From positions 67,133-131,132 of the forward strand of contig CAZKVS010000001.1 in assembly GCA_964556325.1 (NCBI GenBank): a stretch of DNA of 64,000 bases, in the 5' to 3' direction. Of the stretch, positions 32,419 through 49,307 are shown in pieces (the stretch's first letter is position 1; every line of letters begins with the position of its first letter). The notes beneath the pieces were generated by a model. The model was not told the DNA's origin. It worked only from the letters and a program-made list of their open reading frames with translations, and ran no database searches. The position numbers and the translations under genes are program-made. Source of the stretch: an uncultured Candidatus Saccharibacteria bacterium. GTDB lineage: Bacteria; Patescibacteriota; Doudnabacteria; UBA920.

Positions 32419-32700
32419 TTATTTGTCCGCTTTAGGAGTCTTACCCCACTGCCAGCGAGGCTTTTCGCCGGTTCTGTAACAAATAACTATAACCAACGCT
32501 ATAAGCACTATTTCTCTCACAAAGAACCAAACGAGCATGCTCGGAGTTGGTTCGGGTGTTGTGATAAGTCCCAGAGCGTTGACGAGGAGCATGAGTATAA
32601 ACACAGCTAACACTACCCAGCCTTGCCAACTTGCCGGGTACCATCCCCAGCCGTACGTTTTATTTCTAAACCAAAGTGTTTTCATAATTGTATTATACAA
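32419..32700 (-). CDS. Small membrane protein
   Basis: Two TM helices. Confidence 0.35.
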   Translation of the reverse strand: MYNTIMKTLWFRNKTYGWGWYPASWQGWVVLAVFILMLLVNALGLITTPEPTPSMLVWFFVREIVLIALVIVICYRTGEKPRWQWGKTPKADK

Positions 32701-33775
32701 TATTTGGCTCAGAAAAAATTATATCTGCAATGTCTCTCCGTACTTCGTTTATAAGACTTGCATCGGGCTTACGCTTTGGGTGTACAAAATTGGAAAGCAT
32801 GGCAAAGGCAAGTTCTTTTTGTATGTCACACACAACTAAGCAGCCAGTAAAGCCTGTTTTGCCAAATGTATGTGGAGTTGCGTACTGGCCCATATATCGG
32901 GGTTGATTCAGCTCCCAGCCTAAACCGGTACTCTGACCAAGCTTGGCAATTTGATTTGTGTGCATAAGCTTTACTGTCTCCGGTTTAAAGTACTGATGAC
33001 CTTCCAGCGAGCCGTAATTTAATAGCATGCGCAAGAAGCGAAGTAAGTCAGGTACTGTGGTAAATAGGCCGGCATTGCCCGGGTAAAATTGTTTTTGTAA
33101 CGCATGCGCAGACTCATCATGTACGGTGCCATGCAGCAAGCCGCCTCGCTCTTCATCTATTTCGGTAGGCACAACTCGTTGTAGGTCTTGCGGTTTAAAC
33201 GAAGTATCAACCATACCCAGTGGTTGAAAAAAGAGTTCTGCTGCTAGTTCCGGCAAAGAACGGCTATATATTTTTTCCACTACTAACCCAAGCAATATAC
33301 TGGGGGTGTTAGAGTACGCGTAGTGCGCGCCCGGGTCGTGACGCAGCTTGGTAGTGTAAATGAGCTTGAGTATGTCCTCCGGGGCATCATGTTTGTGTGA
33401 AGATAGGGGAGACTCTAGGTCTAGGAGTATGGTAAAGGTAAACAAGTGCCAAATAAGTATTTGTTCACGGTGTGGGTTCTGCAAGTCGGGAAGATAGTCG
33501 CATACTTTGTCGGTAACGCTCAATCGCCCGGACTCAATAAGTTTCAGTGCTAAACAAGCTGTGGGTATGGACTTAGTAACTGAGGCAACGTCAAAAATAC
33601 TATTCGCATGCACCTGTTTCGCGTCAGCATTGTACGTAGTAGCGCCTTCGGCAATGAGCTGCGTTGCACCTAGCGTATTAACAACTCCTACAACACAACC
33701 CGGAAACACTTTTTCCTGAATAGCTCGCTGAATTCGATTGCGAATTTTTGTTTCAGTGGAATTATGCATAGCCAC
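32693..33775 (-). CDS. Beta-lactamase-fold serine hydrolase (class C / PBP4*-like)
   Basis: SVTKS (SxxK) near the N-terminus, YxN-like region. Length fits. Confidence 0.6.
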   Translation of the reverse strand: MAMHNSTETKIRNRIQRAIQEKVFPGCVVGVVNTLGATQLIAEGATTYNADAKQVHANSIFDVASVTKSIPTACLALKLIESGRLSVTDKVCDYLPDLQNPHREQILIWHLFTFTILLDLESPLSSHKHDAPEDILKLIYTTKLRHDPGAHYAYSNTPSILLGLVVEKIYSRSLPELAAELFFQPLGMVDTSFKPQDLQRVVPTEIDEERGGLLHGTVHDESAHALQKQFYPGNAGLFTTVPDLLRFLRMLLNYGSLEGHQYFKPETVKLMHTNQIAKLGQSTGLGWELNQPRYMGQYATPHTFGKTGFTGCLVVCDIQKELAFAMLSNFVHPKRKPDASLINEVRRDIADIIFSEPNIV

Positions 33776-34200: not shown

Positions 34201-35235
34201 ATGAGCAGATTATTTCAAAAACATGTACAGGTACGGTTGGTTTCCTACTCGCTGTTAGTTGTAGCGGTTATAGTTGGTTTTGTGTTGGCCGGATATTTTT
34301 ACTATAAGAGCGAGCAGGGCGACATTCCTATGTTTACCAGAATCCGCGCGGACCGGCAGGACTTAAAATACACCAACCCACTCATAGCTTCAGATTTAAT
34401 AGATAAAAAACAGCTAACCGAGTATAAACCTTTGGAGAAAAAAGTTGCAGACTACATACATCAAGTTAAAACGTCCGGCACTGCCAAAGATGTAGGCGTG
34501 TACTATCGGGAGTTTACCAGTGGTGCGTGGACTGGAGTAAACGAAGACGCCTTGTTTGCGCCGGGAAGCTTGCAAAAAGTGCCGCTCATGGTGGCGTACT
34601 ATAAAATTGCAGAAACAGCCCCAGCAATTTTAAACGATAAACTTCCCAACACCATGCAGGGCGATGCAAATACAGCCCAAGCAGTTAAGCCTGCCAAAAC
34701 CATAGAGTACGGCCAGGAAGCCTCGGTATTGGATTTGCTCAAGCTCATGATTGGTTATTCCGACAACAACGCAACTAACGTGTTGTTCAATCATTTAGAT
34801 CAAGATTCCCTCAAAGAAGTTTTTTCCGATTTAAATCTCGTCTTCAATGACCCATCAGCACACACCAATTCTATTTCCCCAAAACAGTACAGCTTGTTTT
34901 TCCGGGTACTCTATAATGCCTCGTACTTAAGTTGGGCGTACTCTGAGCAGGCTTTAAGCTTGCTTACTCAAAGCGACTTTAAAGACGGACTAGCCGCGGG
35001 TGTGCCTCAAGGTGTGGAGGTGGCGCACAAGTTTGGCGAGAGCTATAACCAAGCGGAAATAAAAAACGGCATTACCCCTCTTGAGCAGTTTCATGACTGT
35101 GGGGTGGTGTATTACCCTAATCACCCATATATTTTATGCGTCATGACTAGGGGAGAAGGATTACAGCCACTTGCGAAAGTTATCCAAGACATTTCTCGTC
35201 TCGTCTACCAAGACGCCGAAAGCCGGTATCACTAA
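34201..35235 (+). CDS. Class A beta-lactamase-fold serine hydrolase-like protein
   Basis: N-terminal TM, SLQK (SxxK), YSDNNATN (SDN). The KTG box is replaced by HKFG. Confidence 0.5.
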   Translation: MSRLFQKHVQVRLVSYSLLVVAVIVGFVLAGYFYYKSEQGDIPMFTRIRADRQDLKYTNPLIASDLIDKKQLTEYKPLEKKVADYIHQVKTSGTAKDVGVYYREFTSGAWTGVNEDALFAPGSLQKVPLMVAYYKIAETAPAILNDKLPNTMQGDANTAQAVKPAKTIEYGQEASVLDLLKLMIGYSDNNATNVLFNHLDQDSLKEVFSDLNLVFNDPSAHTNSISPKQYSLFFRVLYNASYLSWAYSEQALSLLTQSDFKDGLAAGVPQGVEVAHKFGESYNQAEIKNGITPLEQFHDCGVVYYPNHPYILCVMTRGEGLQPLAKVIQDISRLVYQDAESRYH

Positions 35236-35710: not shown

Positions 35711-35784
35711 TGCCCGGTAGCCAAGTGGTAAGGCAGAGGACTCTGAATCCTCCATCCTAGGTTCGAATCCTAGCCGGGCAGCCA
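35711..35784 (+). tRNA. tRNA-Gln (anticodon CUG), CCA encoded
   Basis: Folded by hand. Acceptor TGCCCGG/CCGGGCA, anticodon stem GAGGA/TCCTC with loop CUCUGAA, T-arm CTAGG-TTCGAAT-CCTAG. The D-arm GCCAAGTGGTAAGGCA is close to E. coli tRNA-Gln. Confidence 0.8.
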
Positions 35785-36121: not shown

Positions 36122-37009
36122 ATGCATATTTTAGTTATTACCGGGGGTTCGTCTTCCGAACGGAAAATTTCTTTGCTTTCGGCAAAGGGGGTTAAGGGCG
36201 CGTTAGTTGCCAACGGGCACGCGGTAACTATGTTTGATTTTAAACGGGGGTATGACCAACTACGGAGTGCGCTTGAGAAGTGTGATATGGTTTTTCCGGT
36301 CATGCACGGCAAAGAAGGGGAGGACGGCACGTTGTATAAGTTTCTCCGCTCTGCTAAAAAGCCGTACGTAGGCTCAGAGCCAAAGGGGGCAAGGGTTGCG
36401 TTTGATAAAATTCTATTTAAAAAGTATTGCGACGCCAAAGGCATTCTTACTGCGCCATGGAAGGTTGTTAAAACCAGAGAAGATATTACTCGGTTTGGGT
36501 TGCCGTGTGTGTTGAAGGCTACCTATGGAGGCTCTTCGCACGAAGTGGCGCTCTTGCACACTGAAAAAGACCTTGCGAGTATTCGCGTTAAAAAAATACT
36601 TGCACTACCGTGCCGCTGGTATGTAGAGAGGCTACTGCAGGGCGTTGAAATTACCGTTGGGGTTCTGAACGGCAAGGCGTTACCGGTAATAGAAATTGTA
36701 CCGCCAAGTGCCGGTTGGTTTGACTATAAAAGTAAGTATTCAGGTGAGTCCCAGGAAATTCCTTTTGCACCGTCGGTAAGTAGTAAAGTTCAAAAACAGG
36801 CGCAAGCTCTCGCACTACGCATACACAAAGACCTTCGCCTAGGTAGTTATTCCCGAACAGACTTTATTGTACAAAATAGTAAGTTGTACATCCTGGAAAC
36901 CAACACCCCCGGCGGTGTCGGGCTTACTTCCGAGAGCCTGCTCCCAAAAGCTGCCAAGGCCATGGGAATGAGCTTTGAAAAACTTATTCAGCAAATGTTA
37001 AAGCAATAA
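36122..37009 (+). CDS. ddl: D-alanine--D-alanine ligase
   Basis: MHILVITGGSSSERKISLLSAKGV N-terminus, ATP-grasp core, C-terminal LYILETNTPGGVG. Confidence 0.85.
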   Translation: MHILVITGGSSSERKISLLSAKGVKGALVANGHAVTMFDFKRGYDQLRSALEKCDMVFPVMHGKEGEDGTLYKFLRSAKKPYVGSEPKGARVAFDKILFKKYCDAKGILTAPWKVVKTREDITRFGLPCVLKATYGGSSHEVALLHTEKDLASIRVKKILALPCRWYVERLLQGVEITVGVLNGKALPVIEIVPPSAGWFDYKSKYSGESQEIPFAPSVSSKVQKQAQALALRIHKDLRLGSYSRTDFIVQNSKLYILETNTPGGVGLTSESLLPKAAKAMGMSFEKLIQQMLKQ

Positions 37010-37411: not shown

Positions 37412-37780
37412 ATGTTCCATGTTTTAATTGCCGAGGATGAAAAGCCGATGGCCCATGCCCTTGTGTTAAAGTTGGCTAAGGCCGGTTTCCATTCCACTGT
37501 AGCGGAAAATGGTCAGATAGCCTTAAATTTGCTGCGCGACGGCCGTTATGACTTATTGCTTTTAGACATAATTATGCCACTCGTGAATGGCTTTTCTGTT
37601 CTGGAACAGTTGAAAAAAGATGGTGAGCATGCCATGCCCATTATCATGACTACCAATTTGGGACAGGAAGAAGACCGAAAAAGAGCCATGGATTTGGGTG
37701 CTGTTGACTACGTTATTAAGTCAGACACGCCAATAGCTCAAATAGTAGAAAAGATTCAGGTTATTTTAAACCCAAAGTAA
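37412..37780 (+). CDS. Stand-alone response-regulator receiver domain
   Basis: VLIAEDE ... LLLDIIMP ... K. Confidence 0.8.
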   Translation: MFHVLIAEDEKPMAHALVLKLAKAGFHSTVAENGQIALNLLRDGRYDLLLLDIIMPLVNGFSVLEQLKKDGEHAMPIIMTTNLGQEEDRKRAMDLGAVDYVIKSDTPIAQIVEKIQVILNPK

Positions 37781-37820: not shown

Positions 37821-38303
37821 ATGCATATGGATGTAGCAAATTATGTAAACGATAAAAAGCATACCCCTGGGTACCGTTGTAATAAGTGTGGCAAACTCTT
37901 GACTGAAGGTGAAGAGCACAAGGTTGAAATACGGTGTAATCGTTGTGGGACACTCAATAAAATATTGGAGAAAATGACCGAGCAAGTAATTGTTACCGAT
38001 GTAAGAGGTACTATACTATTTGTAAACGGAGAAGTTGAACGAATAACCGGTTATAGTGCGGAAGAAGCTATAGGCAAAACGCCTTCTTTGTGGGGCGGGC
38101 AAATGCCGCCGGAATTTTATAAGACTATGTGGTCTACGCTGGTAGACGAGAAACAAGGAGTTTCCGTAAAAGTTACCAATCGGCATAAGTCAGGGTATTT
38201 GTACGACGCGCTTCTCAGAGTTTCTCCGGTGTTGGATAGTCAGGGAAAAATAGAGTTATTTGTTGGTTTTGAGTCTTTGGTTGCCAAGCATCCGCCCCAA
38301 TAA
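37821..38303 (+). CDS. Zn-ribbon + PAS-domain protein
   Basis: CNKCGKL...CNRCG ribbon followed by a PAS-like fold (ITGYSAEEAIGKT...). Confidence 0.55.
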   Translation: MHMDVANYVNDKKHTPGYRCNKCGKLLTEGEEHKVEIRCNRCGTLNKILEKMTEQVIVTDVRGTILFVNGEVERITGYSAEEAIGKTPSLWGGQMPPEFYKTMWSTLVDEKQGVSVKVTNRHKSGYLYDALLRVSPVLDSQGKIELFVGFESLVAKHPPQ

Positions 38304-38380: not shown

Positions 38381-40024
38381 ATGGACGAAATAAAAATACG
38401 AGAAATATTGCTAAAAGAAGACTATGTTTCCGCAGCCGATTTAAAAACTGCCGAGGAGTATGCTAAAAGTCATAAGACCACTTTACTCGATGGTCTTCTG
38501 TCTTTGCAGTTAATTACCAAAGATTTACTGCACCAAGCAATTGCCGAGTTTTTGGGCATGGCTTTTATAGACTTGACTGCAAAGCCGCCGGATAAAAAAG
38601 ATATACTCAGTATTCCGAAAGCTTTGGCGGAAAAAGAAAAAATAATTTTGTACAAGCAAACTTCCAAAGAGGCTACCATCGTTTCTGGTGGGGTTGTGTC
38701 TCCCGAAGCCTTGGCAGAACTGCAGAACCTTTTTGTAAATAAAAAAATAAGTGTTGTCTACGCTGATCCAGAAGCAATTGCACTCGCGATGATGCAGTAT
38801 CGGCCGGCACTTGAAACTCGATTTGGCGAAATTATCAAAGCCGGTGGAAAGGTTGCTCCGGAAATAATCGATCAAATTCTAGACGACGCACTTGCTTTGC
38901 GTGCGTCCGATATCCACTGCGAGCCGCAAGGTGCTGACGTACTTATTCGTTTTAGGATTGACGGAGTATTGCATGAAGCTGGACGAGTACCGAAAGAACA
39001 TTACGAAAACATTGTGAACCGGATTAAGGTGCAGGCCAAGCTGAGAATTGATGAACACTTGGCGAGTCAAGACGGTGCTATCCATTTTAGTGGCACACAT
39101 CATCAGGCAGACCTGCGGGTTTCAATTGTACCCACACTAGACGGTGAAAAAGTGGTTATTCGGGTTTTGGCAGAGTATGTTCGAGACTTTTCTCTCACAG
39201 ATATAGGGTTATCGGCGGAGGATCAACAAACGGTTGTGGAGGCCGCTCATAAACCGTTTGGTATGGTATTGGTGACTGGTCCTACTGGCAGCGGAAAGAC
39301 TACTACGTTATATTCCTTAGTCAAACTGTTAAACGACACGCAAGTTAACATAACCACTATTGAAGACCCGGTTGAGTATAAAATTACCGGCATAAACCAA
39401 ATTCAGGTAAATACTGTAAGCAATTTAACTTTTGCCAAAGGTCTGAGGGCAATAGCCAGGCAAGACCCCAATATTATTTTGGTGGGTGAAATCCGAGATT
39501 TAGAAACGGCGGATATAGCGGTCAACGCAGCGTTAACTGGTCACTTATTACTTTCCACTTTTCACGCCAACGACTCTGCTGCTGTAATGCCAAGGCTTTT
39601 AAACATGGGCATTGAGCCATTTTTACTTTCATCGACTCTGGAATTGATAGTGGCCCAGCGCTTGGTAAGGAAGATATGTGAAAGTTGTCGGTTCACTCAG
39701 AGCGTTACTCTGGACGACATTATAAAGTTGCTGCCACGTGCGAAAGAATATTTTTCAGAAAGTTCCGTAACGCTCTATAACGGTAAAGGGTGTGGTGCGT
39801 GCTCTCAGACTGGCTATAAAGGTCGTTTGGGTTTGTTCGAGTTTTTAAAAGTCACGCCAGAAATGTCCGACTTAATTTTGGCTAACCCTTCGAGTAAACA
39901 AATTTGGCAATTAGCAAAATCCCAAGGCTGTCGAAGTTTGTTTGAAGATGGTATACAAAAAGTTAAAGCGGGACACACGACGTTGGAAGAGTTATTGAGA
40001 GTGGTAAAACCTAAAGATTTATAA
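38381..40024 (+). CDS. pilB: Type IV pilus assembly ATPase PilB (GspE family)
   Basis: N-terminal GSPII_E_N repeats, Walker A VLVTGPTGSGKTTTLYS, Asp/His boxes, C-terminal tetra-Cys (CESC...CGAC). Confidence 0.9.
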   Translation: MDEIKIREILLKEDYVSAADLKTAEEYAKSHKTTLLDGLLSLQLITKDLLHQAIAEFLGMAFIDLTAKPPDKKDILSIPKALAEKEKIILYKQTSKEATIVSGGVVSPEALAELQNLFVNKKISVVYADPEAIALAMMQYRPALETRFGEIIKAGGKVAPEIIDQILDDALALRASDIHCEPQGADVLIRFRIDGVLHEAGRVPKEHYENIVNRIKVQAKLRIDEHLASQDGAIHFSGTHHQADLRVSIVPTLDGEKVVIRVLAEYVRDFSLTDIGLSAEDQQTVVEAAHKPFGMVLVTGPTGSGKTTTLYSLVKLLNDTQVNITTIEDPVEYKITGINQIQVNTVSNLTFAKGLRAIARQDPNIILVGEIRDLETADIAVNAALTGHLLLSTFHANDSAAVMPRLLNMGIEPFLLSSTLELIVAQRLVRKICESCRFTQSVTLDDIIKLLPRAKEYFSESSVTLYNGKGCGACSQTGYKGRLGLFEFLKVTPEMSDLILANPSSKQIWQLAKSQGCRSLFEDGIQKVKAGHTTLEELLRVVKPKDL

Positions 40025-40025
40025 C

Positions 40026-41162
40026 ATGCCTCAGGTAAAAATTCGTAAACGTCAGATTGAAGAAGACTATGAAGCACAACCGCCTTTTGCGTTTCATTCG
40101 GGCTGGCCGTACTTTACTGTTGGCTTTGGTGACGAGATAGACTACTTTGTGGAGAATTTGAGCATTATGATAGCTTCGGGTATGGGTGTAACCGCGGCTT
40201 TGGCTGGCATTAAAGTCGGTACTAAAAACCGGAGTTTAAAAAAGAACATAGCAGTCATAGAACAAATGATTGCCGATGGTTTTCCGCTTTGGAAAGCCTT
40301 TGAGCGCACTCAATTTTTACCCTCTCGAATAATTGCCTTAGTAAAATCGGGTGAAGAATCGGGTCGTTTACCTGAGCACCTCAATTTAGTTACTATCCAA
40401 CAGCATAAAGAACGAATTTTTGTTTCCCGTATACGCTCCGCATTGCTGTATCCGGGTATTGTGCTCGCGTTGGCCTTTGTGGTTGCGGTGGGCAGCGCGT
40501 GGGTCACGCTCCCACGGCTAATTACAGTTTTTAATGAAATTCACACGAGTTTGCCACCCACCACTAGAATGATTATTTGGTTGGGGAATTTTTTGGCCCA
40601 CTACGGCAGTTTCGCAGTTCCCCTCACTCTGTTCGGGGCTGGAGTACTCGTATATGCAATATTTTTTTATACTAAAACTAAAATTGTAGGGGAGTATATT
40701 ATATTATTTTTACCGGGAATAAATAAGCTCATCCAAGGTGTAGAGTTGGCGCGCTTTGGCTATATATTTGGCGCCTTGCTTTCTGCGGGTATTCACATAG
40801 AGGAAGCCATGAGTTCCGTTCGTGAGGGGACTAGCTTTGTATCGTATAGAAAATTCTACGTATTTTTGCAAGACGGCATAAGCCAAGGCAATTCATTTAG
40901 TACCATCTTTGCCGGATATGCACACTCAGATCGCTATATTCCGGCGCCTATGCAAAAACTTATTATTGCTGCTGAGCAAAGTGGTAAATTGCCGGAGACC
41001 TTACTAAAAATTGGCCAAATTTTTGAAGAAAAAACTGAAACCATGAGTCAGGATTTATCTACTATTTTAGAGCCAATAGTTTTAATTGTTGTAGGAATTT
41101 TTGTAGGCTTTATTGTATTAGGTTTAATTAGCCCAATATATGGACTTTCAAGCCAGATATAA
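40026..41162 (+). CDS. pilC: Type IV pilus platform protein PilC (GspF family)
   Basis: Two T2SSF-like repeats and three TM segments. Confidence 0.85.
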   Translation: MPQVKIRKRQIEEDYEAQPPFAFHSGWPYFTVGFGDEIDYFVENLSIMIASGMGVTAALAGIKVGTKNRSLKKNIAVIEQMIADGFPLWKAFERTQFLPSRIIALVKSGEESGRLPEHLNLVTIQQHKERIFVSRIRSALLYPGIVLALAFVVAVGSAWVTLPRLITVFNEIHTSLPPTTRMIIWLGNFLAHYGSFAVPLTLFGAGVLVYAIFFYTKTKIVGEYIILFLPGINKLIQGVELARFGYIFGALLSAGIHIEEAMSSVREGTSFVSYRKFYVFLQDGISQGNSFSTIFAGYAHSDRYIPAPMQKLIIAAEQSGKLPETLLKIGQIFEEKTETMSQDLSTILEPIVLIVVGIFVGFIVLGLISPIYGLSSQI

Positions 41163-41589
41163 CACGCAGGGTTTTAGTCTTATCGAAGTTATGGTTGTGG
41201 TCGGGCTTTTAGCGTTGTTCGCTGGAGCTGTTGGGCCCGTGTACCGAACAGTACAAACCAAGACAAATTTAGATATTGCTGTTGCGGGGGTAGCTTCAGC
41301 GTACAGGCGGGCACAGGCAGCGTCTCAGTCGGGCAACGCTGATGCTAATTGGGGAGTAAAATTTTTTACGACTCATACTGTTGTATTTGCGGGGAACAGT
41401 TATGCAGTAAGGCAAGCTTCCTATGACGAAAAACTAGATTTCCCGGATGACACAACTGTTTCTGGAAATACTGAAGTTGTGTTTACTAAATTTACCGGAT
41501 TACCACAAGCTACTGGAACTACAACAGTAACGAACTCTTTTGGCAGTAAAAACCTCATTGTAAATGCACAAGGAACTGTTACGTACTAA
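41140..41589 (+). CDS. Type IV pilin-like protein (prepilin N-terminal methylation domain)
   Basis: Leader MDFQARYNTQG then FSLIEVMVVVGLLALFAG (G|F, with E5). Confidence 0.7.
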   Translation: MDFQARYNTQGFSLIEVMVVVGLLALFAGAVGPVYRTVQTKTNLDIAVAGVASAYRRAQAASQSGNADANWGVKFFTTHTVVFAGNSYAVRQASYDEKLDFPDDTTVSGNTEVVFTKFTGLPQATGTTTVTNSFGSKNLIVNAQGTVTY

Positions 41590-43747
41590 AAAAGAAACTG
41601 GTTTTTCTGTGGCCGAGGTGGTTATTGCCGCGGCCGTGTTGACTATTTTCATTACGGGGATTACTTCTGCTTTGGTTGCTCTGGGCAGAAATATTAACTC
41701 CTCTGGCCACAAAGCACAAGCAGTGTTGTTGGCTGAAGAAGCCTTGGAAGGCTCGCGTAACATTCGCGACGCGGCTTTTTCTAATCTTATTGACGGAACA
41801 TATGGTATGGCCACGGCTAGTAACCAGTGGAACTTTTCCGGCAGCTCAGATGTAAACGGCATTTATACAAGGCAAACAACTGTTTCTACAGTCAGCGCCA
41901 ACCAAAAACAAATATCATCCACCGTTTCTTGGCGACACGGTGCAGCGTTAAACCGCAGTGTTACTGTATCAACGTACCTAACTAACTGGCTTACGAGCCT
42001 GGCAAGGGGAGGATTATTAGCCTATGGTAATGGCGGCACAACGCTCGACAGTATTTTTTATCGTGTACTAAATAACACCGGTAATTGGTCAGCTGCAGCC
42101 CAAGCAGCAGATATAGATGCTGGTACGAGTAATCGGGCTTTGCGTGCTGTGAGGGTTTACGCGTCGGCTACTCGAAATGAAAAAGTCTTAATTTCCCGAC
42201 ATTACAACGGGACTACTCAATACGTGTACGCGCAAGTGTATAACGGCTCCAGTTGGGGTAATGTGCAATTGCTTTCAAGCTGGACAGCCGGAACTTTTCT
42301 AGATGTGCAAAATTTTGACGGCACATATTTAGCAAATGGCAGTTTCATGGTAATTTTTTCTGATAATACAATTATTCCTAAAATGAGAACCTGGAATGGG
42401 TCTGTGTGGTCTGCTCAAAGCTCTCTCACTACCTTAGGCGCCGGCGCTATACCAAACTATGTAGTGGCTAAAGCTCGTTCGGGTAGCAATGAAGTAATGG
42501 CGGCATTTTTTACACAAAATTCTAGAACAATTAGTGAATATTATAACGGTAGCGCCTGGTCGGCAATTACATCACATGCGGCAGCTGCGCCGGTTAATAC
42601 AACTAGGTTTGTAGATTTTGCCTGGAGTCCAAACAATGCTTTAAAAGGCGGTTTGGTATATTCCACCGGAGCTGCCGACAGGGCTTTGCATATAAAAATT
42701 TGGACAGCGAATGGTTTGGGTAGTGGGAGTTGGAGTGCTGTAGCCAATACTGCGAATCAAGGAGTTGGGTCAACGAGGCTGGGGGCAGTGTCTATTGTGG
42801 GTCGGCCGGGAGCAGATGAATTTATTGCCTGTAACAAAAATACCAGCCTGCAAATTATCTGCTACAAAAGTACTTTTACCCCTACGTGGACTAACCCAAC
42901 TAACCAAAGCCTAACCGCGACCACCAATGCAGGAATACAGCGTCCATTTCATATGGGTTTTGAATCGGTGTCCGGTGACCCCGCTATTGGCGTTTATTCC
43001 GACGCGACTGCTACGCCAAAACTAAAAAAGTATACAGCTTCAAGCTCCACGTGGGACGCTTCCGCTACCAGCTTAAATACTTTATTAGCTTCTTTAGCTT
43101 CGGTAAAAGTAATACCCGCTCCAACCACCAATGATATTTTGGTGTTGCTTGGAGACACAAATGCAGATCTCTATTCCACTATTTGGGATGGAACCAATAA
43201 TGTAATATATTCGCCACCCTTGGGAAATACTTCCATAGAAAGTAACTTGGATTCCAATACAGTTGGGAGAGCTGAAAGCTTTTTTGCTACTGCTACTGCC
43301 AGTGGCACTATAAATAGTATCAGTGTGTTCCTTGAATCAACTTCTACATCAACAAATTTAGTAGCTGGATTATATACAAACTCTGGGGGGAGCCCAGGAA
43401 CCCTGCTCTCACAAGGGAGTAGCTCTACTTTGATAAATGGAGCATGGAACACTATTGCTATTCCTTCAGTTACTCTAACTTCCGGTACAAGTTATTGGAT
43501 ATCTATTTTAGGCACGGCTGGCGGAGTTCCTAGATTTAGGGACAGAAGCGGGGGCCCTTGTAATAGTGAAACAAGTGCCTCTACAACGTTAACTTCATTG
43601 CCGGCATCCTGGACCACTGGCACTGTATTTACGACTTGTCCTTTGTCAGCTTATGTCAGTGGGAATGGTAATTCTTTTACACCTCACGGTATCAGTGGCT
43701 CCGCTACTACTGATTATTGGTACGATTTTGCTTGGGACGTATTTTAG
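41564..43747 (+). CDS. Giant pilin-like protein (prepilin N-terminus + ~690 aa Ser/Thr/Gly/Asn-rich beta-rich domain)
   Basis: Leader ...KKETG then FSVAEVVIAAAVLTIF. The rest is low in charge and rich in S/T/G/N/W, like an adhesin. Confidence 0.65.
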   Translation: MHKELLRTKKETGFSVAEVVIAAAVLTIFITGITSALVALGRNINSSGHKAQAVLLAEEALEGSRNIRDAAFSNLIDGTYGMATASNQWNFSGSSDVNGIYTRQTTVSTVSANQKQISSTVSWRHGAALNRSVTVSTYLTNWLTSLARGGLLAYGNGGTTLDSIFYRVLNNTGNWSAAAQAADIDAGTSNRALRAVRVYASATRNEKVLISRHYNGTTQYVYAQVYNGSSWGNVQLLSSWTAGTFLDVQNFDGTYLANGSFMVIFSDNTIIPKMRTWNGSVWSAQSSLTTLGAGAIPNYVVAKARSGSNEVMAAFFTQNSRTISEYYNGSAWSAITSHAAAAPVNTTRFVDFAWSPNNALKGGLVYSTGAADRALHIKIWTANGLGSGSWSAVANTANQGVGSTRLGAVSIVGRPGADEFIACNKNTSLQIICYKSTFTPTWTNPTNQSLTATTNAGIQRPFHMGFESVSGDPAIGVYSDATATPKLKKYTASSSTWDASATSLNTLLASLASVKVIPAPTTNDILVLLGDTNADLYSTIWDGTNNVIYSPPLGNTSIESNLDSNTVGRAESFFATATASGTINSISVFLESTSTSTNLVAGLYTNSGGSPGTLLSQGSSSTLINGAWNTIAIPSVTLTSGTSYWISILGTAGGVPRFRDRSGGPCNSETSASTTLTSLPASWTTGTVFTTCPLSAYVSGNGNSFTPHGISGSATTDYWYDFAWDVF

Positions 43748-43759
43748 AAATGGAAAAAT

Positions 43760-44287
43760 ATGAATCCTAAATTAGGAATACATCGCACACATACGCAGGT
43801 TGGTTTTACCCTTATAGAAATGCTGGTCTATACCGCACTGTTTGCGTTAATGGTTTCGGCGTTGGTGGCGTTTATGAGTACGTTGTCTCAAAGTCGGATA
43901 CGTAACCAGGCCGTGCTGGAGGTGAATGACCAGGCTGCGCAGGTTATGCGGGTTATTACTCAAAATGTACGCAATGCCACGTCTGTAAGTTCCCCCAGCA
44001 TTGGCACTTCGGGGAGCTCGCTTTCTGTTAATACAGTTTTACCCGCTACTACTCCTACCACGTTTACGGTGTCGGGCGGTACTTTATACATTACCCAGGG
44101 TTCAGGTGGGGCTGTGGCGCTGACTAACAACAGAGTAGCCGTAAGTAATGTATTATTTTCCAATTTGTCGAGGGCTTCAACGTTCGGTACGGTGAGAGTG
44201 AGCTTTACTCTACGGAGCGTCTCTTCTGCAACTCAGGCGCAATATAACTATTCAGCAAATTTTTATGGTACGGGTACTCTACGATAA
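43760..44287 (+). CDS. Type IV pilin/pseudopilin
   Basis: MNPKLGIHRTHTQVG then FTLIEMLVYTALFALMV. Confidence 0.7.
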   Translation: MNPKLGIHRTHTQVGFTLIEMLVYTALFALMVSALVAFMSTLSQSRIRNQAVLEVNDQAAQVMRVITQNVRNATSVSSPSIGTSGSSLSVNTVLPATTPTTFTVSGGTLYITQGSGGAVALTNNRVAVSNVLFSNLSRASTFGTVRVSFTLRSVSSATQAQYNYSANFYGTGTLR

Positions 44288-44669
44288 AAGTTATACAGGA
44301 TTTGTAACGCTCTATAGCGTGATAATTTTGGGCTCGATTGGTTTAGTCCTGGTTGCAGCATTGGCCGCTACAAGCATATGGGTTATTCGTACGAGTGGTG
44401 ATGACAAAAATTCTGCTCAGGCACGCAAGGCTGCGGATAGTTGTGTGGAACTAGCCTTGCAAGCTATGCACGATAGCAATAGCTTTACTGGCAGTGGCAA
44501 TGCTTCCGTTGGTGGCGCAACGTGTACTTATGTAGTGACCAACACCGGTGGGAATAACCGCACTGTGGGTGCTACAGGCACAGTTGGTGCCCTGGTACGT
44601 AGAGTTTCTGTTACAACTACTGCCTTTACTCCTTCCCTTACTGTTTCTAGCTGGCAAGAAGTGCCTTAG
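44265..44669 (+). CDS. Minor pilin-like protein (PilX-like, lacks E5)
   Basis: Hydrophobic N-terminus (GFVTLYSVIILGSIGLVLVAALA), then an S/T/G-rich domain. Overlaps the previous gene by 23 nt. Confidence 0.4.
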   Translation: MVRVLYDKSYTGFVTLYSVIILGSIGLVLVAALAATSIWVIRTSGDDKNSAQARKAADSCVELALQAMHDSNSFTGSGNASVGGATCTYVVTNTGGNNRTVGATGTVGALVRRVSVTTTAFTPSLTVSSWQEVP

Positions 44670-44699: not shown

Positions 44700-46958
44700 A
44701 TGAAACAATTCCCTAAAAAAATATTTACCACCACCGTCCGAGAATCGGAACTAGTTGCCCAAGGTGTTAAGAAGCTCACTCTGCAACCAGCTGAGGATTT
44801 CTCCTTTACTCCCGGGCAATATGTGTGGGTGGAAATTCCTACACTTAAAATTGGTGATCCTGCGGGTAACAGAAAAGCATTTTCTATTTGCAGTCTTCCA
44901 AACTCTCAAAACACTTTTTCGGTTGTAGCCAGAGAAAGTGCAAGCGGTTTTAAAAAAGCGTGGTTTGCGCTGAGCCCCGGGGATACGGTAATAACTCATG
45001 GTCCATTTGGTTCAAGCTTTGGTATACATGAGCACTTTCCAAAGAATATAGTTATGATTGCCGGAGGGGTGGGCGTCGCGCCTTTCTTGCCAGTCATTGA
45101 GCTAATACAAAAACGGGCCTTACCCATACGGTGTATTCTTATCTATCTTGACAAAACAGAAGAATCTACCCCGTTTCTCTCTGAACTTGAGCAGCTACAA
45201 AATACAAACAGTTTTTTTGAATATCGTGCAGTGTATGACTATTTTTCATGGGGGTATATAAAAACTAAGTACGAAAATCTAACAGGCGCTACTGAGTGGT
45301 GGGTGTCTGGTTCACAGAAGATGGTTGAGTATGTGTATGCCGAGTTGTCAAAAGGTGGGGTGGCGCGGGAACACATGGTTTTTGAAAATTATTACCCAAG
45401 TTCAAAAGACAACTTAAACATAGAGCAGGTGAGAGAGCAAATGCAGAAAGAGGGTTTACTTACCCAGGCCATACAAAACTCCACTAACCATACAATAATT
45501 ACCGACTCCAACGGTATTGTGTTGTTTGCAAACAAAGCTGCTGAAAAAATAACTGGTTATTCGCAGGCCGAAATTTTGGGGAATACCCCCCGGTTGTGGG
45601 GCGGTATGATGGATCCGGCTTTTTATAAAGATTTTTGGCAGAAAAAGAGGTCCGGCCAGTCGTTTGAAGGTGAGATGACTAATCGTCGAAAAAACGGCGA
45701 GCTGTATCATACCATAGCCCACATTGCGCCAATTTTCGGAACAAGCAAAGAGATTATTGGTTTTATTGGCACCGAAGAAGATGTCACCAGTCTAAAGAAA
45801 CAGGAAGAAAAAATACTTCAGGATAAATTAAAAGATGAAGCTATTTTAAGTAGCATTGGAGAAAGCGTTATAGCAACCGACAATACGGGTAAGGTTGTGT
45901 TTGCAAACCAAACTGCTCTAGACTTGTTTGAGCAGCCTGAAGAAATAGTATTTAATAAAAAAATTTGGGACATTCTTATTTTAGTCGATGCTAAGGGAGG
46001 GTTAATTACAGAAGCGAGTCGTCCTATGAAGTTGGCATTAACTACAGGAAAGAAGATTATAACTTCTGAGTATTGTTTTTACAACGAAAACAACAAAAAG
46101 AAAATTGTAGTGGCTATTACTGCGACTCCTGTAATTTTAGATGGCTCTATTATTGGAGCAATAGAAATTATCCGCGATATTACAAAAGAAAAAGAAATAG
46201 ATCAAGCCAAAACTGAATTTGTCTCTCTAGCTAGTCACCAACTGCGTACGCCGCTTTCGGCAATAAATTGGTATACAGAAATGCTCCTTGCCGGAGACGC
46301 AGGAAAACTAAATGATGAGCAGGAGAAATATCTTAAAGAGGTGTACACAGGTAATCAACGCATGGTGGAATTGGTTAACGCACTGCTAAATGTGTCTCGC
46401 TTAGATTTGGGAACCTTTGTCATTGAACCAAAGCCGACTGATGTTTTAGCGTTGGCAAAAAGCGTACTTGGCGAATTGCAGCCGCTCATTACGCAAAAGC
46501 AATTAACTGTTACAGAACATTTTAGTCAAGGCATTCCCCAGTTCAATGCAGATGAAAAATTACTTCGCATGGTGTTCCAAAACTTGTTGTCTAACTCTGT
46601 AAAATACACCTTACTTAAAGGTTCTGTAACGGCTGACGTTACCGTGGTATCTAAAGATGAAATGTTTGGTGGTAAAAAAGTTGCGGTGGACAGCTTGGCT
46701 ATTTGTGTATCCGATTCCGGTATGGGCATTCCCACTGCGCAGCACGCTAAAATTTTCTCAAAGTTATTTCGAGCCGACAATGCTATGGAAACAGAGGCTG
46801 AGGGCACGGGGCTAGGTTTGTATATTGTAAAATCAATCGTTGACCAGTCAGGTGGAAAGATTTGGTTTAAGTCGGAACAAGATAAAGGAACTGAATTTTA
46901 TGTATTATTTCCCATAACTGGTATGAAGTCAAAAGATGGTTTAAAGAAGCTTGAATAA
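44700..46958 (+). CDS. Hybrid sensor histidine kinase with an N-terminal FNR-like FAD/NAD(P)H-binding oxidoreductase domain, PAS repeats, HisKA and HATPase
   Basis: RKAFSICS (RxYS-type FAD motif), MIAGGVGVAPFLP (GGxGxxP NAD motif), two PAS segments, H-box LASHQLRTPLSAI, G-boxes DSGMGI and GTGLGL. Confidence 0.75.
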   Translation: MKQFPKKIFTTTVRESELVAQGVKKLTLQPAEDFSFTPGQYVWVEIPTLKIGDPAGNRKAFSICSLPNSQNTFSVVARESASGFKKAWFALSPGDTVITHGPFGSSFGIHEHFPKNIVMIAGGVGVAPFLPVIELIQKRALPIRCILIYLDKTEESTPFLSELEQLQNTNSFFEYRAVYDYFSWGYIKTKYENLTGATEWWVSGSQKMVEYVYAELSKGGVAREHMVFENYYPSSKDNLNIEQVREQMQKEGLLTQAIQNSTNHTIITDSNGIVLFANKAAEKITGYSQAEILGNTPRLWGGMMDPAFYKDFWQKKRSGQSFEGEMTNRRKNGELYHTIAHIAPIFGTSKEIIGFIGTEEDVTSLKKQEEKILQDKLKDEAILSSIGESVIATDNTGKVVFANQTALDLFEQPEEIVFNKKIWDILILVDAKGGLITEASRPMKLALTTGKKIITSEYCFYNENNKKKIVVAITATPVILDGSIIGAIEIIRDITKEKEIDQAKTEFVSLASHQLRTPLSAINWYTEMLLAGDAGKLNDEQEKYLKEVYTGNQRMVELVNALLNVSRLDLGTFVIEPKPTDVLALAKSVLGELQPLITQKQLTVTEHFSQGIPQFNADEKLLRMVFQNLLSNSVKYTLLKGSVTADVTVVSKDEMFGGKKVAVDSLAICVSDSGMGIPTAQHAKIFSKLFRADNAMETEAEGTGLGLYIVKSIVDQSGGKIWFKSEQDKGTEFYVLFPITGMKSKDGLKKLE

Positions 46959-47382
46959 ATTAATGAGTAAACATATGTCTATGTCAAACGAAGATAAGGT
47001 GGTATTAGTGCTCGAAGACGAGCGGCCTTTGCTAGAGGCTATAAAATTAAAACTAGAAAAAAATAGTTTTGAGGTGGTAACGGCTCGAACTGTGGAGCAG
47101 GCAAAACAGTACGTTGACGATTTAGTAAAGGTAGATGTTATTTGGCTGGATCATTACCTCCTTGGTAAGGAGAACGGGTTAGATTTTGTGGCTTGGTGCA
47201 AGGAAGAAAATAATGCTAAGTGCAAAAACATTCCTATATTTGTAGTTTCAAACACCGCCAGCGCAGATAAAGTTTCTACGTACATGCGTCTCGGTGCAAA
47301 AGAATATTTTGTGAAGTCAAACCATCGGCTAGATGAAATTGTAAAAGCAATTGCTGACTATTTAAACAAGGGGATTGAATAA
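46951..47382 (+). CDS. Stand-alone response-regulator receiver domain
   Basis: VVLVLEDE ... IWLDHYL ... K. Confidence 0.7.
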   Translation: MNKLMSKHMSMSNEDKVVLVLEDERPLLEAIKLKLEKNSFEVVTARTVEQAKQYVDDLVKVDVIWLDHYLLGKENGLDFVAWCKEENNAKCKNIPIFVVSNTASADKVSTYMRLGAKEYFVKSNHRLDEIVKAIADYLNKGIE

Positions 47383-47391
47383 TAACTTATT

Positions 47392-47784
47392 ATGGAAAAT
47401 AAAAAGACAATTTTGGTGGTGGAAGTTGTAGAAGATGAGGCACCACTCCGAAATGCACTTGTAGAAAAATTATCTCGTGAAGGATTCTCAGTCTTAAACG
47501 CAAAAAATGGCGAAGAGGGATTACAAACAGCTTTGTCTAATCACCCGAACTTAATATTGCTTGACATTATAATGCCAAAAATGAATGGATTAGAAATGTT
47601 AGAAAAGTTGAGAGCCGATGCCTGGGGTAAAACAGCACACGTGATAATGCTTACTAACCTAAGCGACAACGAAAAAATTGCCGAAGCAATGCATAGCCAC
47701 GCCTTTGATTATTTTGTGAAGTCTGATATTAAAATTCAAGAAGTAGTAGATAAAATAAAAGAAAAGTTATTGCATAAAGCATAG
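47392..47784 (+). CDS. Stand-alone response-regulator receiver domain
   Basis: ILVVEVVEDE ... LILLDIIMPKMNG ... K. Confidence 0.8.
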   Translation: MENKKTILVVEVVEDEAPLRNALVEKLSREGFSVLNAKNGEEGLQTALSNHPNLILLDIIMPKMNGLEMLEKLRADAWGKTAHVIMLTNLSDNEKIAEAMHSHAFDYFVKSDIKIQEVVDKIKEKLLHKA

Positions 47785-47907: not shown

Positions 47908-48537
47908 ATGACAGCAGAACGCGAGTTTTTTGTAGTAAAACCAGAGCTTGTGCAGTCAGACCCATGGGTTGAACTTGTGCGCAGGGAGCGGGAGTTGGGA
48001 GAGGTGCACGAGCGGATGCTTTTGGCTTTGCAGTATGTGAAGGGTGAGAGAGATGCTGCGCTTGTTTTGGGTGATGCTTCTAAGGTGCAGGCTAAATATT
48101 TACTAGAGCAAGCTGGTTTTGGATTGGTGACAGATGTAGATATAAGTCCCAGCTTAGGGGATGATGAAGTAGTGCCCCTTTCGGAAGAGCGACTAAAACG
48201 AATTGTTTCTCCGTTTGATGGATACATGCCGCCGGAAGAAAGTTTTAATTTTATATATGGCAAGTCTTTAGCTTTTAACCCAAAAGAGACTACACCGGAA
48301 GTTTTGCTCCGTATGCAGCTTGCTTTAACTGAGGGTGGTATATTTTCGGCTGCGTGGGCAGGGGAGTACGACGAGTTCCGCTCCAAACATTATTCCCAAG
48401 AAGAGCTTGAACAACTGTACATTCAGAGCGGGTTACACATCCTACATATGGATAATCGAACCCCTGAGGAAGTGCGGGGACTCAATTCAACTCGAGTTGC
48501 GCATTTAATAGATATTATTGCCGAAAAGAGTAATTAA
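47908..48537 (+). CDS. Hypothetical protein
   Basis: 209 aa with balanced composition. The overlapping minus-strand ORF is Ser-rich and low-complexity, so it is likely spurious. Confidence 0.45.
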   Translation: MTAEREFFVVKPELVQSDPWVELVRRERELGEVHERMLLALQYVKGERDAALVLGDASKVQAKYLLEQAGFGLVTDVDISPSLGDDEVVPLSEERLKRIVSPFDGYMPPEESFNFIYGKSLAFNPKETTPEVLLRMQLALTEGGIFSAAWAGEYDEFRSKHYSQEELEQLYIQSGLHILHMDNRTPEEVRGLNSTRVAHLIDIIAEKSN

Positions 48538-48551
48538 AGTAGTTTAAATAT

Positions 48552-49307
48552 ATGGCTGTTGCTGCAACTGAAAAATATTTTACAGAGACAGGTGAGTTCT
48601 CCGAGCAAAAACGGACAGAGTTTTTGTCGGGTTTAAAAGATGAAACATCTGACGCATTTGAGCATATTGACTTGGGTGATTTCTTGCGTTTCGCAGGAGT
48701 GCCAAATCAACTTATTATTGATGAAATAAATACCGTGCCTGTAGACCAGCGACTTGCTAAGGCTGTGGAGTTAGGTATTTTGGCGAGTCCAGAAGGATAT
48801 AGTTGGTCCTTTAGCGGTTTGCGACCAATTGTTTTTGTAAAAGTGGGCGGTCAGATGATGCCTTTTTATCGAAGCAGTAAGGGCACAGGGGGTGTAAAAA
48901 CCGCGGGGGTGTGGTACCCATTCTTTGGATTCGGAGAAGACGAGTGGTTAATAAAAGGCGGTGGGGATAATTTTGAAACGAGCTATAACAACTCCGCTTT
49001 GCAGAAAGCCCAAGCTATATTAAACGCTGCGTTGAATTGGGATCATACCTTGGACTTGGTGGGGATGGATATTCAGGGGTATCCACTGCACGAGTTGGAA
49101 AACTTTTGCCCCCCGAGCGAACTCAACCAGCTAGTGTATGGCGAAAAAGAGTTGCCTTATCATCCCGATAGGCACGACGGCAAGTCCGGCGAGCGAATAA
49201 CTAAAATAATAATGGCCATGTACGAAAAGTATCCCGTTGAAGTGGTTAAGGGAGTGGTGGAGGCAAATCGTAGTAGATTAACAGAGCTCGGGTACAACCC
49301 GTCCTAG
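48552..49307 (+). CDS. Hypothetical protein
   Basis: 251 aa. No confident motif. Confidence 0.4.
   Translation: MAVAATEKYFTETGEFSEQKRTEFLSGLKDETSDAFEHIDLGDFLRFAGVPNQLIIDEINTVPVDQRLAKAVELGILASPEGYSWSFSGLRPIVFVKVGGQMMPFYRSSKGTGGVKTAGVWYPFFGFGEDEWLIKGGGDNFETSYNNSALQKAQAILNAALNWDHTLDLVGMDIQGYPLHELENFCPPSELNQLVYGEKELPYHPDRHDGKSGERITKIIMAMYEKYPVEVVKGVVEANRSRLTELGYNPS

Follow-up and report, generated by a model that had tools for sequence, protein, structure and literature searches.

The 64,000-nt window analyzed here (positions 67,133 to 131,132, forward strand, of contig CAZKVS010000001.1 in assembly GCA_964556325.1) contained a same-strand string of genes comprising PilB, PilC, four pilin-like genes, a 30-nt gap, a sensor kinase gene, a receiver gene, and a second receiver gene. 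The kinase gene (44700..46958, plus strand), the subject of this study, was predicted from its open reading frame (ORF), Pfam matches, and colinear homologues to encode a soluble sensor kinase of 752 amino acids (aa) with the domain order FNR-like/PAS1/PAS2/HisKA/HATPase_c. An NAD(P)H-flavin reductase-like module of the ferredoxin-NADP reductase (FNR) type and a putative FAD-binding PAS domain of the NifL type form its predicted input. The gene was a single ATG-to-stop frame free of stops and frameshifts. No transmembrane (TM) segments and no hydrophobic stretches of TM character were found along the protein, and a membrane-sensor reading was dropped on these grounds. Pfam placed PAS domains at aa 256 to 363 and 384 to 498, HisKA at aa 503 to 570, and HATPase_c at aa 618 to 739, so that the two PAS domains and the complete HisKA-HATPase core described after the N-terminal module in an initial annotation, which was made from the sequence alone, were all recovered. 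A frameshift or a division into two genes, which that annotation had named as grounds for rejecting its reading, was not found; the ORF was unbroken, and full-length colinear homologues were present in other genomes. An exact-sequence look-up returned no other record of the 752-aa protein. Related loci are designated below by L numbers and related proteins or contigs by P numbers.

The N-terminal module (aa 8 to 232) consisted of two subdomains. The flavin-binding beta-barrel subdomain (aa 8 to 105; 44721..45014, plus strand), delimited by FAD_binding_6 and the strands of an AlphaFold2 model, contained the motifs K59-A-F61-S62, S82-G-F-K85, and G101-P-F-G104. The NAD(P)H-binding subdomain (aa 115 to 232; 45042..45395, plus strand), delimited by NAD_binding_1, alignment to BenC, and Foldseek, contained A121-GGVGVAPF129, S203-G204, and F228-E-N-Y231-Y232-P. 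The Pfam NAD_binding_1 model matched aa 119 to 178 with 26.2 bits when the N-terminal fragment was searched and 24.4 bits when the whole protein was searched (cutoff, 22). Among 10 family members scanned, nine passed the FAD_binding_6 cutoff (22.8 to 34.4 bits) and eight passed that of NAD_binding_1. Comparison of aa 1 to 251 with all PDB chains (phmmer) matched approximately 100 chains of the FNR superfamily. The best match was benzoate 1,2-dioxygenase reductase (E = 2e-12, aa 32 to 231), and others included sulfhydrogenase gamma, NqrF, T4moF, phthalate dioxygenase reductase, flavohaemoglobins, the dehydrogenase domains of NOX and DUOX, and cytochrome b5 reductases (b5R). The AlphaFold2 model of aa 1 to 380, built from a 62-sequence family alignment, had a mean pLDDT of 95.1, a pTM of 0.90, and the secondary structure expected of an FNR, and Foldseek matched it to PDB structures of Hmp, BenC, NqrF, SpNOX, and b5R (E of about 1e-16, target TM score of up to 0.8). 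Based on Pfam, the PDB matches, the high-confidence model, and Foldseek, the N-terminal module has an FNR fold beyond reasonable doubt. The initial annotation had assigned the N-terminal ~230 aa to the FNR family, in agreement with the hidden Markov model (HMM), PDB, and fold matches across aa 1 to 232, and its GGVGVAPF site for NAD(P) corresponded to AGGVGVAPF at aa 121 to 129. The RKAFS motif that it proposed for flavin binding was present at aa 58 to 62, with the register off by one, R58 being one residue upstream of the canonical Arg.

Motif conservation was counted over 110 family members that contained both the FNR-like module and PAS1. The canonical R-x-[Y/F]-S register corresponded to positions 59 to 62, with the family consensus R59-A-F-S (R59 in 108, F61 in 103, and S62 in 109 of 110) and Phe where most FNRs carry Tyr. 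S82 and K85 were present in 107 and 103 members, G101, P102, and G104 in 105 to 110, and F103 in 83. The G-x-G-x-x-P motif of the nucleotide site was kept (G123 in all 110, G122 and G125 in 105, P128 in 90, and F129 in 100), as was G204 (109 of 110). At the C-terminal end of the module, F228-E229-x-[FY]231-Y232-P233 was conserved in 69 to 99 of 110 members per position (F228 in 85, [FY]231 in 76, and Y232 in 75), and Y231 aligned with the C-terminal F-E-K-F of BenC, showing that the flavin-stacking aromatic residue at the C terminus of FNR-superfamily modules is present. The near invariance of flavin-site and NAD(P)H-site residues across the 110 members points to purifying selection on the cofactor sites and argues against a decayed pseudo-domain. 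The residues D151, E154, and E155 after strand beta2, together with a b5R-like L-x-Y-x-N-x-x-x-E pattern, are a weak hint that NADH may be preferred over NADPH.

The first PAS domain, PAS1 (aa 250 to 365; 45447..45794, plus strand), was delimited by PDB matches, conservation, and the model, and its marker residues were T268, T296-PRLWGG302, Y309, W313 in helix Falpha, N328, and E359/E360. When aa 246 to 377 were compared with PDB, the best match was MmoS PAS-A (E = 6e-20), followed by NifL PAS1 (E = 3e-12) and then by LOV domains and Aer, all of which bind flavin. FAD binding in the NifL, AerC, and Aer clusters of PAS domains is determined primarily by the Falpha Trp and secondarily by Asn and/or His, and at least two of these three residues are conserved per cluster (Xing et al. 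2023, PMC10468136). The Ealpha His (Aer H53 and MmoS H132) belongs to the Aer and AerC clusters only and not to the NifL cluster (PMC10468136). In the family studied here, W313 aligned with NifL W87 and the corresponding MmoS Trp, fell inside a predicted Falpha helix (aa 306 to 317), and was present in 110 of 110 members; N328, within N-R-R-K, aligned with NifL N102, MmoS N164, and Aer N85 and was present in 104. The Ealpha His position was occupied by Pro297 in the window copy, as in 96 of 110 members, and by His in 13. With Trp and Asn both kept, PAS1 retains two of the three determinants despite the missing His and thus falls, by this published sequence test, among putative FAD-binding PAS domains, with T-P-R-L-W-G-G as a signature of its own. 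The initial annotation treated both PAS domains as generic and missed the predicted identity of PAS1 as a domain of the NifL/MmoS type.

Comparison with individual FAD contacts was consistent with this assignment. Eight FAD contacts of NifL include T41, A45, E70, R80, Y83, W87, L90, and N102 (review, PMC8063818). T41, Y83, W87, and N102 were conserved in PAS1 as T268, Y309, W313, and N328, respectively; A45 was replaced by G272, and E70, R80, and L90 differed (P297, P306, and K316). The invariant R298 sits at the position of the phosphate-binding Arg of LOV domains (NCRFL motif). A minority subclass, approximately 8 to 13 of the 110 members, carried N-H-R-L-K together with an Arg on strand Ibeta, i.e., the His and Arg of Aer and MmoS. 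Orthology to NifL was rejected on the basis of the NCBIfam whole-protein score (TIGR02938, 119 against a cutoff of 242). Given the NifL/MmoS type of PAS1, the sensed flavin is probably in PAS1, with the FNR-like module most likely serving as its electron-input device. The direct NAD(P)H/flavin redox sensing that the initial annotation read from the FNR-fold input is supported as a putative function and refined in this respect.

PAS2 (aa 384 to 498; 45849..46193, plus strand) was identified by PAS_4 and by partial NCBIfam matches to WalK, PnpS, and PhoR as a cytoplasmic PAS domain of the VicK/WalK/PhoR-like type. It was followed by HisKA/DHp (aa 503 to 570; 46206..46409, plus strand; Pfam, 9.6e-17, and alignment to HK853), with the phospho-acceptor H513 in S-H-Q-L-R-T-P, and by HATPase_c (aa 618 to 739; 46551..46916, plus strand; Pfam, 3.2e-24), with the N box residue N632, the G1 box D672-x-G-x-G, and the G2 box G702-x-G-x-G. 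H513 was invariant across six homologues. The kinase core matched HK853 (E = 4e-34), and the VicK-like structure 4i5s aligned over residues 2 to 367 of a query consisting of aa 373 to 752, or about aa 374 to 739. By these alignments, the kinase core is an intact DHp-CA core of the HK853/VicK type. WalK, PnpS, and PhoR were rejected as equivalogs, with NCBIfam scores far under the cutoffs (221 versus 725, 221 versus 400, and 170 versus 334, respectively).

The closest relatives that were found first were FNR-PAS proteins of approximately 400 aa without a kinase. On the contigs L001 and L002, both from metagenome-assembled genomes (MAGs), the FNR-PAS gene was succeeded by distinct genes for a PAS-HisKA-HATPase protein and a receiver, 3' of the same type IV pilus operon; an artefactual join was for this reason considered for the window gene. 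With a profile, 80 loci were recovered from a set of one genome for each GTDB species, and 50 of them were of the signaling type when their ORFs were mapped for domains. In these species representatives, FNR-PAS-(PAS)-kinase was encoded in a single ORF at 32 loci, and 14 loci were split with the kinase adjacent, either as FNR-PAS/histidine kinase (HK) or as FNR (230 aa)/TM-PAS-PAS-HK. Full-length colinear fused homologues were found in independent MAGs (L005, 54% identity; L011, 50%; L016 and L037, 42%; and L027, 35%). A HMMER search of 1.84 billion representatives (E ≤ 1e-30) yielded an N-domain family of 650 representatives at 50% identity, and the closest 160 of these comprised 88 kinase fusions, 41 FNR-PAS proteins, and 31 FNR-like proteins alone. 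The same architecture, which the initial annotation had proposed to look for in other genomes, was thus found both at the fused loci and among the closest family representatives. Its description of an FNR-fold input as uncommon holds for characterized kinases and fails inside Patescibacteria, where the family is large and recurrent. These comparisons indicate that the FNR-PAS-kinase fusion is a genuine recurrent gene architecture. By a Rosetta-stone argument, the coexistence of fused and split states suggests that the kinase functions jointly with PAS1 and the FNR-like module. Databases name these proteins "PAS domain-containing protein" and nothing more.

Taxonomic labels of the family were overwhelmingly those of Patescibacteria, or candidate phyla radiation (CPR), and included Lloydbacteria, Nomurabacteria, Uhrbacteria, Yanofskybacteria, Ryanbacteria, Woesebacteria, Levybacteria, Staskawiczbacteria, Kaiserbacteria, Moranibacteria, Berkelbacteria, Gracilibacteria, and Saccharibacteria. 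About a dozen third-party "binchicken" MAGs were labeled proteobacterial (Gammaproteobacteria, Pseudomonadales, or Bdellovibrionales), yet their loci (L005, L011, L013, L016, L019, L024, L027, L037, L040, L055, and L061) closely matched pilus/kinase operons of the Patescibacteria type, and the proteobacterial labels are probably wrong or unreliable. At one further locus (L051:9914-13962), the FNR-like domain extended over two overlapping ORFs of 219 and 1,147 aa, a sign that this MAG may contain a frameshift or sequencing error there; the PAS domain of the locus was of the Aer/MmoS-type variant (NHRLLKS..W..NRAK).

The coupling between the reductase-like module and PAS1 was assessed from spacing, structure prediction, and gene organization. 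The distance from the NAD(P)H motif to the PAS1 motif was 164 to 191 aa (mode, 172 to 176), with an inserted domain in about ten members. The pTM of the two-domain, 380-residue model exceeded the ceiling of about 0.62 calculated for a case in which the 235-residue domain alone is confidently placed, and the linker had a pLDDT of at least 90; PAS1 is accordingly predicted to dock rigidly on the reductase, the pTM value being the sole argument for this arrangement. ORFs with the strict PAS1 signature numbered 36 at the 80 loci; 35 contained the FNR-like domain and the remaining one lay immediately 3' of an FNR-only gene. At L020, L028, L034, and L048, a free FNR-like protein of 230 aa was encoded immediately upstream of a membrane-anchored kinase with a PAS1-type domain as its first cytoplasmic domain. 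In the species-representative scan, an N-terminal FNR-like ORF identified by the family profile was fused or adjacent to PAS or kinase genes at 50 of 67 loci, including all closest relatives.

Searches with PAS1 only returned 13 candidates from the single sequence and, from the profile, only proteins of <215 aa, missing known long members; the profile search could not be used to count PAS1 domains with and without FNR, although it did reveal stand-alone PAS1 proteins. PAS1 domains that are not fused to a kinase ended in a coiled-coil-like helix, ..L(E/N)K.N..MV(G/D)RELKM.ELK.EI.. (examples being P0003, P0006, P0197, P0199, P0204, L001, L002, and L084). This helix was missing from the fused kinases, where it was replaced cleanly by the PAS2 linker, and it is plausibly a candidate docking element for a partner kinase.

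The type IV pilus genes upstream of the kinase (38381..44669, plus strand; Pfam T2SSE, T2SSF, and N_methyl) comprised those for the PilB ATPase (38381-40024), the PilC platform protein (40026-41162), and, up to position 44669, four pilin-like proteins: a pilin, a 727-aa pilin-like protein, and minor-pilin-like proteins of 175 and 134 aa. Three stand-alone receivers were encoded nearby, "up" (37412..37780, plus strand; Response_reg, 2e-23), "dn1" (46951..47382, plus strand; Response_reg; likely start ATG 46963, about 5 nt past the kinase stop), and "dn2" (47392..47784, plus strand; Response_reg, 3e-22), the last being the second conserved receiver after the kinase. The co-location of the kinase with pilus genes and three receiver domains that had been noted from the letters of the sequence was borne out by Pfam. 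The pilus gene order was common to L001, L002, L005, L006, L011, L016, L037, L050, and L054. The three receivers, all single-domain proteins, fell into three conserved orthologue groups, with orthologues of "up" immediately upstream of PilB in L002, L005, L011, and L050 and orthologues of "dn1" and "dn2" following the kinase in fixed order in L005, L006, L011, and L037. In L037, the kinase, four receivers, PilB, PilC, and pilins formed one gene string, and a receiver gene lay downstream at 30 of 43 loci. Promoter-like sites in the scan were not above chance (20 observed versus 23.5 expected), the 30 nt that separate the kinase gene from the last pilin gene contained no terminator-like hairpin, and weak terminator-like matches occurred within the pilus genes. 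Operon structure is therefore read from gene spacing only.

Between the stand-alone receiver "up" and PilB, the window also encoded a protein of approximately 160 aa with an N-terminal CxxC..CxxC Zn ribbon and a PAS1-like domain (37821..38303, plus strand; Pfam and the signature TPSLWGG..W..NRHK). This domain is a paralogue of the kinase PAS1 that retains the Falpha Trp and the Asn and has Ser in place of R298. Homologues at L037:9394-9924 and L038:8593-9063 were encoded immediately upstream of the FNR-PAS-kinase gene, and the protein could be a second flavin-PAS client or a heterodimer partner. The 727-aa protein (41564-43747, plus strand) had a pilin-like hydrophobic N terminus and no Pfam match; homologues of 275 to 633 aa occupied the same position in related pilus operons, and it may serve as a tip adhesin or a large minor pilin. 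Just 5' of the receiver/pilus string lay two divergent genes of the beta-lactamase family (32693-33775, minus strand, and 34201-35235, plus strand), a tRNA (35711-35781), and a D-Ala-D-Ala ligase gene (36122-37009). Right after "dn2," two ORFs of 209 and 251 aa (47908-49307, plus strand) had no Pfam match at E ≤ 0.01 and were followed by DUF1697 and MFS transporter genes. Elsewhere in the window, at 7765-9429 (plus strand), a gene encoded another sensor kinase (554 aa, GAF-PAS-HisKA-HATPase_c) that is unrelated to the first.

The domain identities, the conservation of cofactor sites, the pattern of fusion and fission, and the synteny observed here are consistent with a two-flavin redox sensor kinase in which electrons would pass from NAD(P)H to the FNR flavin and on to the FAD of PAS1, reoxidation by an oxidant would oppose this flow, and the balance would set kinase output. 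We assign this reading a probability of about 0.5. From the fold and motif conservation, the FNR-like module (aa 8 to 232) would bind NAD(P)H at AGGVGVAPF and reduce a flavin held at K/R59-x-F61-S62; flavin occupancy is part of this proposal, as is electron transfer from that flavin to FAD in the adjacent PAS1. O2 or another oxidant would reoxidize the PAS1 FAD, as in NifL, and by this analogy the FAD level would report NAD(P)H supply versus oxidant. The change in PAS1 would be transmitted through the helix at aa 363 to 383 to PAS2 and the DHp and CA domains and would set autophosphorylation at H513; the domains involved were all identified, and their coupling is drawn by analogy, with a sign of regulation that we can only infer. 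The phosphoryl group would then pass to the neighboring stand-alone receivers, candidate targets suggested by synteny, whose own direct target would probably be the type IV pilus machinery encoded alongside. As the receivers have no DNA-binding output, control would most likely be posttranslational and exerted on the pilus machinery; this is the most speculative step.

Patescibacteria are reported to be without a respiratory chain and quinone pool, which are the usual redox inputs of sensors of the Aer and ArcB types, and a built-in reductase would suit such cells. A broader version of the two-flavin reading can be put forward tentatively. The kinase might be a self-powered sensor, in which the fused reductase continuously charges the PAS-bound FAD and oxidants discharge it, yielding in CPR bacteria an "energy-taxis-like" signal of reducing power versus oxygen that single-domain receivers would carry straight to the type IV pilus motor. 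The FNR-like module, PAS1 with its coiled-coil tail, the kinase, and the Zn-ribbon-PAS1 protein would then be a lineage-specific toolkit occurring in several fusion states. If this is true, the wiring to the pilus motor would reach host attachment, twitching, or DNA uptake.

Several observations count against the two-flavin reading. In the window copy, FAD_binding_6 matched aa 12 to 105 with 19.1 bits, slightly under the Pfam cutoff of 21.1. K59 (codon 44874-44876), next to R58, replaces the family Arg and is the only Lys among the 110 members; it may weaken or alter binding of the flavin phosphate in this protein. The G-x-x-S/T pyrophosphate motif was noncanonical (S82-G-F-K-K-A here and S-G-[YF]-K-[KQ]-[TS] in the family), with the Ser/Thr displaced by one position in the family and Ala in the window copy. 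The "CG" motif was S203-G204, position 203 being Ser in 41, Ala in 22, and Cys in 14 of 110 members. In PAS1, Pro replaces NifL E70, MmoS H132, and the LOV Cys, and Glu replaces MmoS R195, substitutions that make its putative flavin pocket a distinct variant. Among the 19 loci flanked on either side by 7 kb or more, 7 (about a third) had adjacent pilus genes. Stand-alone PAS1-type proteins of 125 to 210 aa exist, and at L084, L085, and the P0204 contig (the last by Pfam gene calls only) pilins were followed in order by a CHASE-PAS protein, a PAS-kinase orthologous to that of the window, and a free PAS1 protein (520, 630, and 170 aa, respectively, at L084:2500-6513 and L085:1051-5064). This variant was 53% identical to the window kinase in the core and 54% identical in the free PAS1. 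No FNR-like domain was found within 6 kb at L084 or L085 with the family HMM, even at E ≤ 10, and no receiver was called immediately downstream. The reductase is thus not indispensable in cis, and its pairing with PAS1 is nonobligate; at these loci the reductase may be encoded elsewhere, or PAS1 may be reduced by other routes.

The FNR-less loci favor the alternative that FAD in PAS1 is the sole, self-sufficient sensor of redox state or O2 and that the FNR-like module is an accessory and no dedicated donor to PAS1, acting as a Fre-like reductase of free flavins or some other acceptor, in cofactor loading or repair, or in local O2 consumption. Kinase and PAS1 are the same at these loci, the FNR-like module lacks a conserved catalytic Cys, and the R-x-F-S motif and size of ~230 aa resemble Escherichia coli Fre, which uses flavin as a substrate; the phmmer match of aa 1 to 251 to Fre itself (PDB 1qfj) was weak (E = 0.028). 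This alternative leaves unexplained why the linker is nearly constant in length and why FNR and PAS1 are confidently predicted to be rigidly arranged, together with the retention of the FNR module beside PAS1-type kinases through gene fission and at the 50 of 67 fused or adjacent loci, and we regard it as rather improbable. Conversely, the FNR-like module might itself be the sensor, through its NAD(P)H versus NAD(P)+ occupancy or its own flavin, with PAS1 and PAS2 as cofactor-free transmitters. The conserved FNR-like motifs and the N-terminal input position of the module are compatible with this, many PAS domains are free of cofactors, and the FAD-less MmoS PAS-B also matched PAS1 (31 bits). 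An empty PAS domain is hard to reconcile with the invariant W313 and with N328, Y309, and T268 conserved at the NifL FAD contacts, however, and stand-alone PAS1 proteins retain the signature without an FNR module; sensing by the FNR-like module itself is, in our estimation, slightly less probable again than an accessory role for that module.

Two further explanations are far less probable. LOV domains were among the PAS1 matches, and R298 aligned with the phosphate-binding Arg of NCRFL, as would be expected if PAS1 were a LOV-like blue-light receptor whose photoproduct is reset by the FNR-like module. The position of the adduct Cys of G-x-N-C-R-F-L is Pro297, as in 96 of 110 members, and was never Cys among the residues listed; on this basis a LOV photoreceptor was rejected as an identity for PAS1. 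An FAD-type Falpha Trp stands in place of the LOV Arg, and groundwater is the origin of many of the source MAGs, leaving photoreception very unlikely. Least probable of all is that a frameshift, misassembly, or chimera joined an FNR-PAS gene to a PAS-kinase gene. The separate genes of the close relatives L001 and L002 and the lack of another record of the exact protein are what such an artefact would produce, and they are outweighed by the uninterrupted ORF, the colinear fused homologues in many MAGs, the 88 fusions among 160 representatives, and the clean exchange of the coiled-coil tail of unfused proteins for the PAS2 linker.

Compared with characterized systems, the predicted protein combines elements that are known separately. 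It shares with NifL PAS1, MmoS PAS-A, and the Aer PAS domain the fold of PAS1, an Falpha Trp for stacking on the adenine of FAD, an Asn and a Tyr for hydrogen bonding to the isoalloxazine ring, and the Thr of the I-T-D strand, and, as in NifL and MmoS, a second PAS domain would relay to a kinase-type module. NifL, MmoS, and Aer use external electron donors, and none has a fused reductase. PAS1 further differs from NifL and MmoS in its T-P-R-L-W-G-G Ealpha motif and in the Pro and Glu substitutions described above. Unlike NifL, which has no active kinase and acts on NifA, the window protein retains a complete H box, and its predicted partners are stand-alone receivers. With phthalate dioxygenase reductase, BenC, Hmp, NqrF, and SpNOX it shares a two-subdomain NAD(P)H/flavin module fused to a redox acceptor and the common design in which electrons pass from pyridine nucleotide to flavin to fused acceptor. 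In the window protein, unlike in those reductases, the acceptor would be a putative flavin-PAS rather than a 2Fe-2S cluster, haem, or membrane cytochrome, and the output would be phosphorylation rather than catalysis; the Cys of the "CG" motif is not conserved in the family, and the flavin motif is R/K-x-F-S. The proposed passage from NAD(P)H through a first to a second flavin in one chain resembles that of diflavin reductases of the cytochrome P450 reductase type. This likeness is functional only, the second flavin being placed in a PAS domain and not in a flavodoxin fold, with no homology in that part. Like Rex, the protein would report pyridine-nucleotide redox state to a regulatory output; in Rex this occurs by competitive nucleotide binding to the Rossmann domain of a DNA-binding protein, whereas here an electron-transfer module would feed a kinase. 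The PAS2-DHp-CA portion resembles VicK and HK853. The single-domain receivers beside pilus genes resemble PilG, PilH, and CheY, and CheY-like receivers control pilus motors; unlike in the Chp and Che systems, no CheA is involved.

Nothing relevant to reductase-fused kinases or to pilus signaling in CPR bacteria was found in the literature searched, the coverage of which was incomplete, so that this absence is no proof, and the word "reductase" was absent from the main text of a 2025 review of flavin redox switches in signaling. As far as could be checked, the combination of a reductase and a flavin-PAS in a sensor kinase is undescribed. How PAS-bound FAD is reduced in cells has been an experimental question of its own for flavin-PAS redox sensors such as NifL and Aer. 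Because the candidate donor is covalently attached in the window protein, a single soluble recombinant protein could be used to test the whole proposed chain, which starts at NAD(P)H and leads by way of flavin and PAS-FAD to the kinase, and a compact NAD(P)H-responsive kinase could also serve as a biosensor part. Patescibacteria are uncultivated, mostly episymbiotic bacteria with reduced genomes, and to our knowledge their signaling is essentially unstudied. A conserved putative redox sensor in a pilus operon suggests how CPR bacteria may decide on the deployment of their pili.

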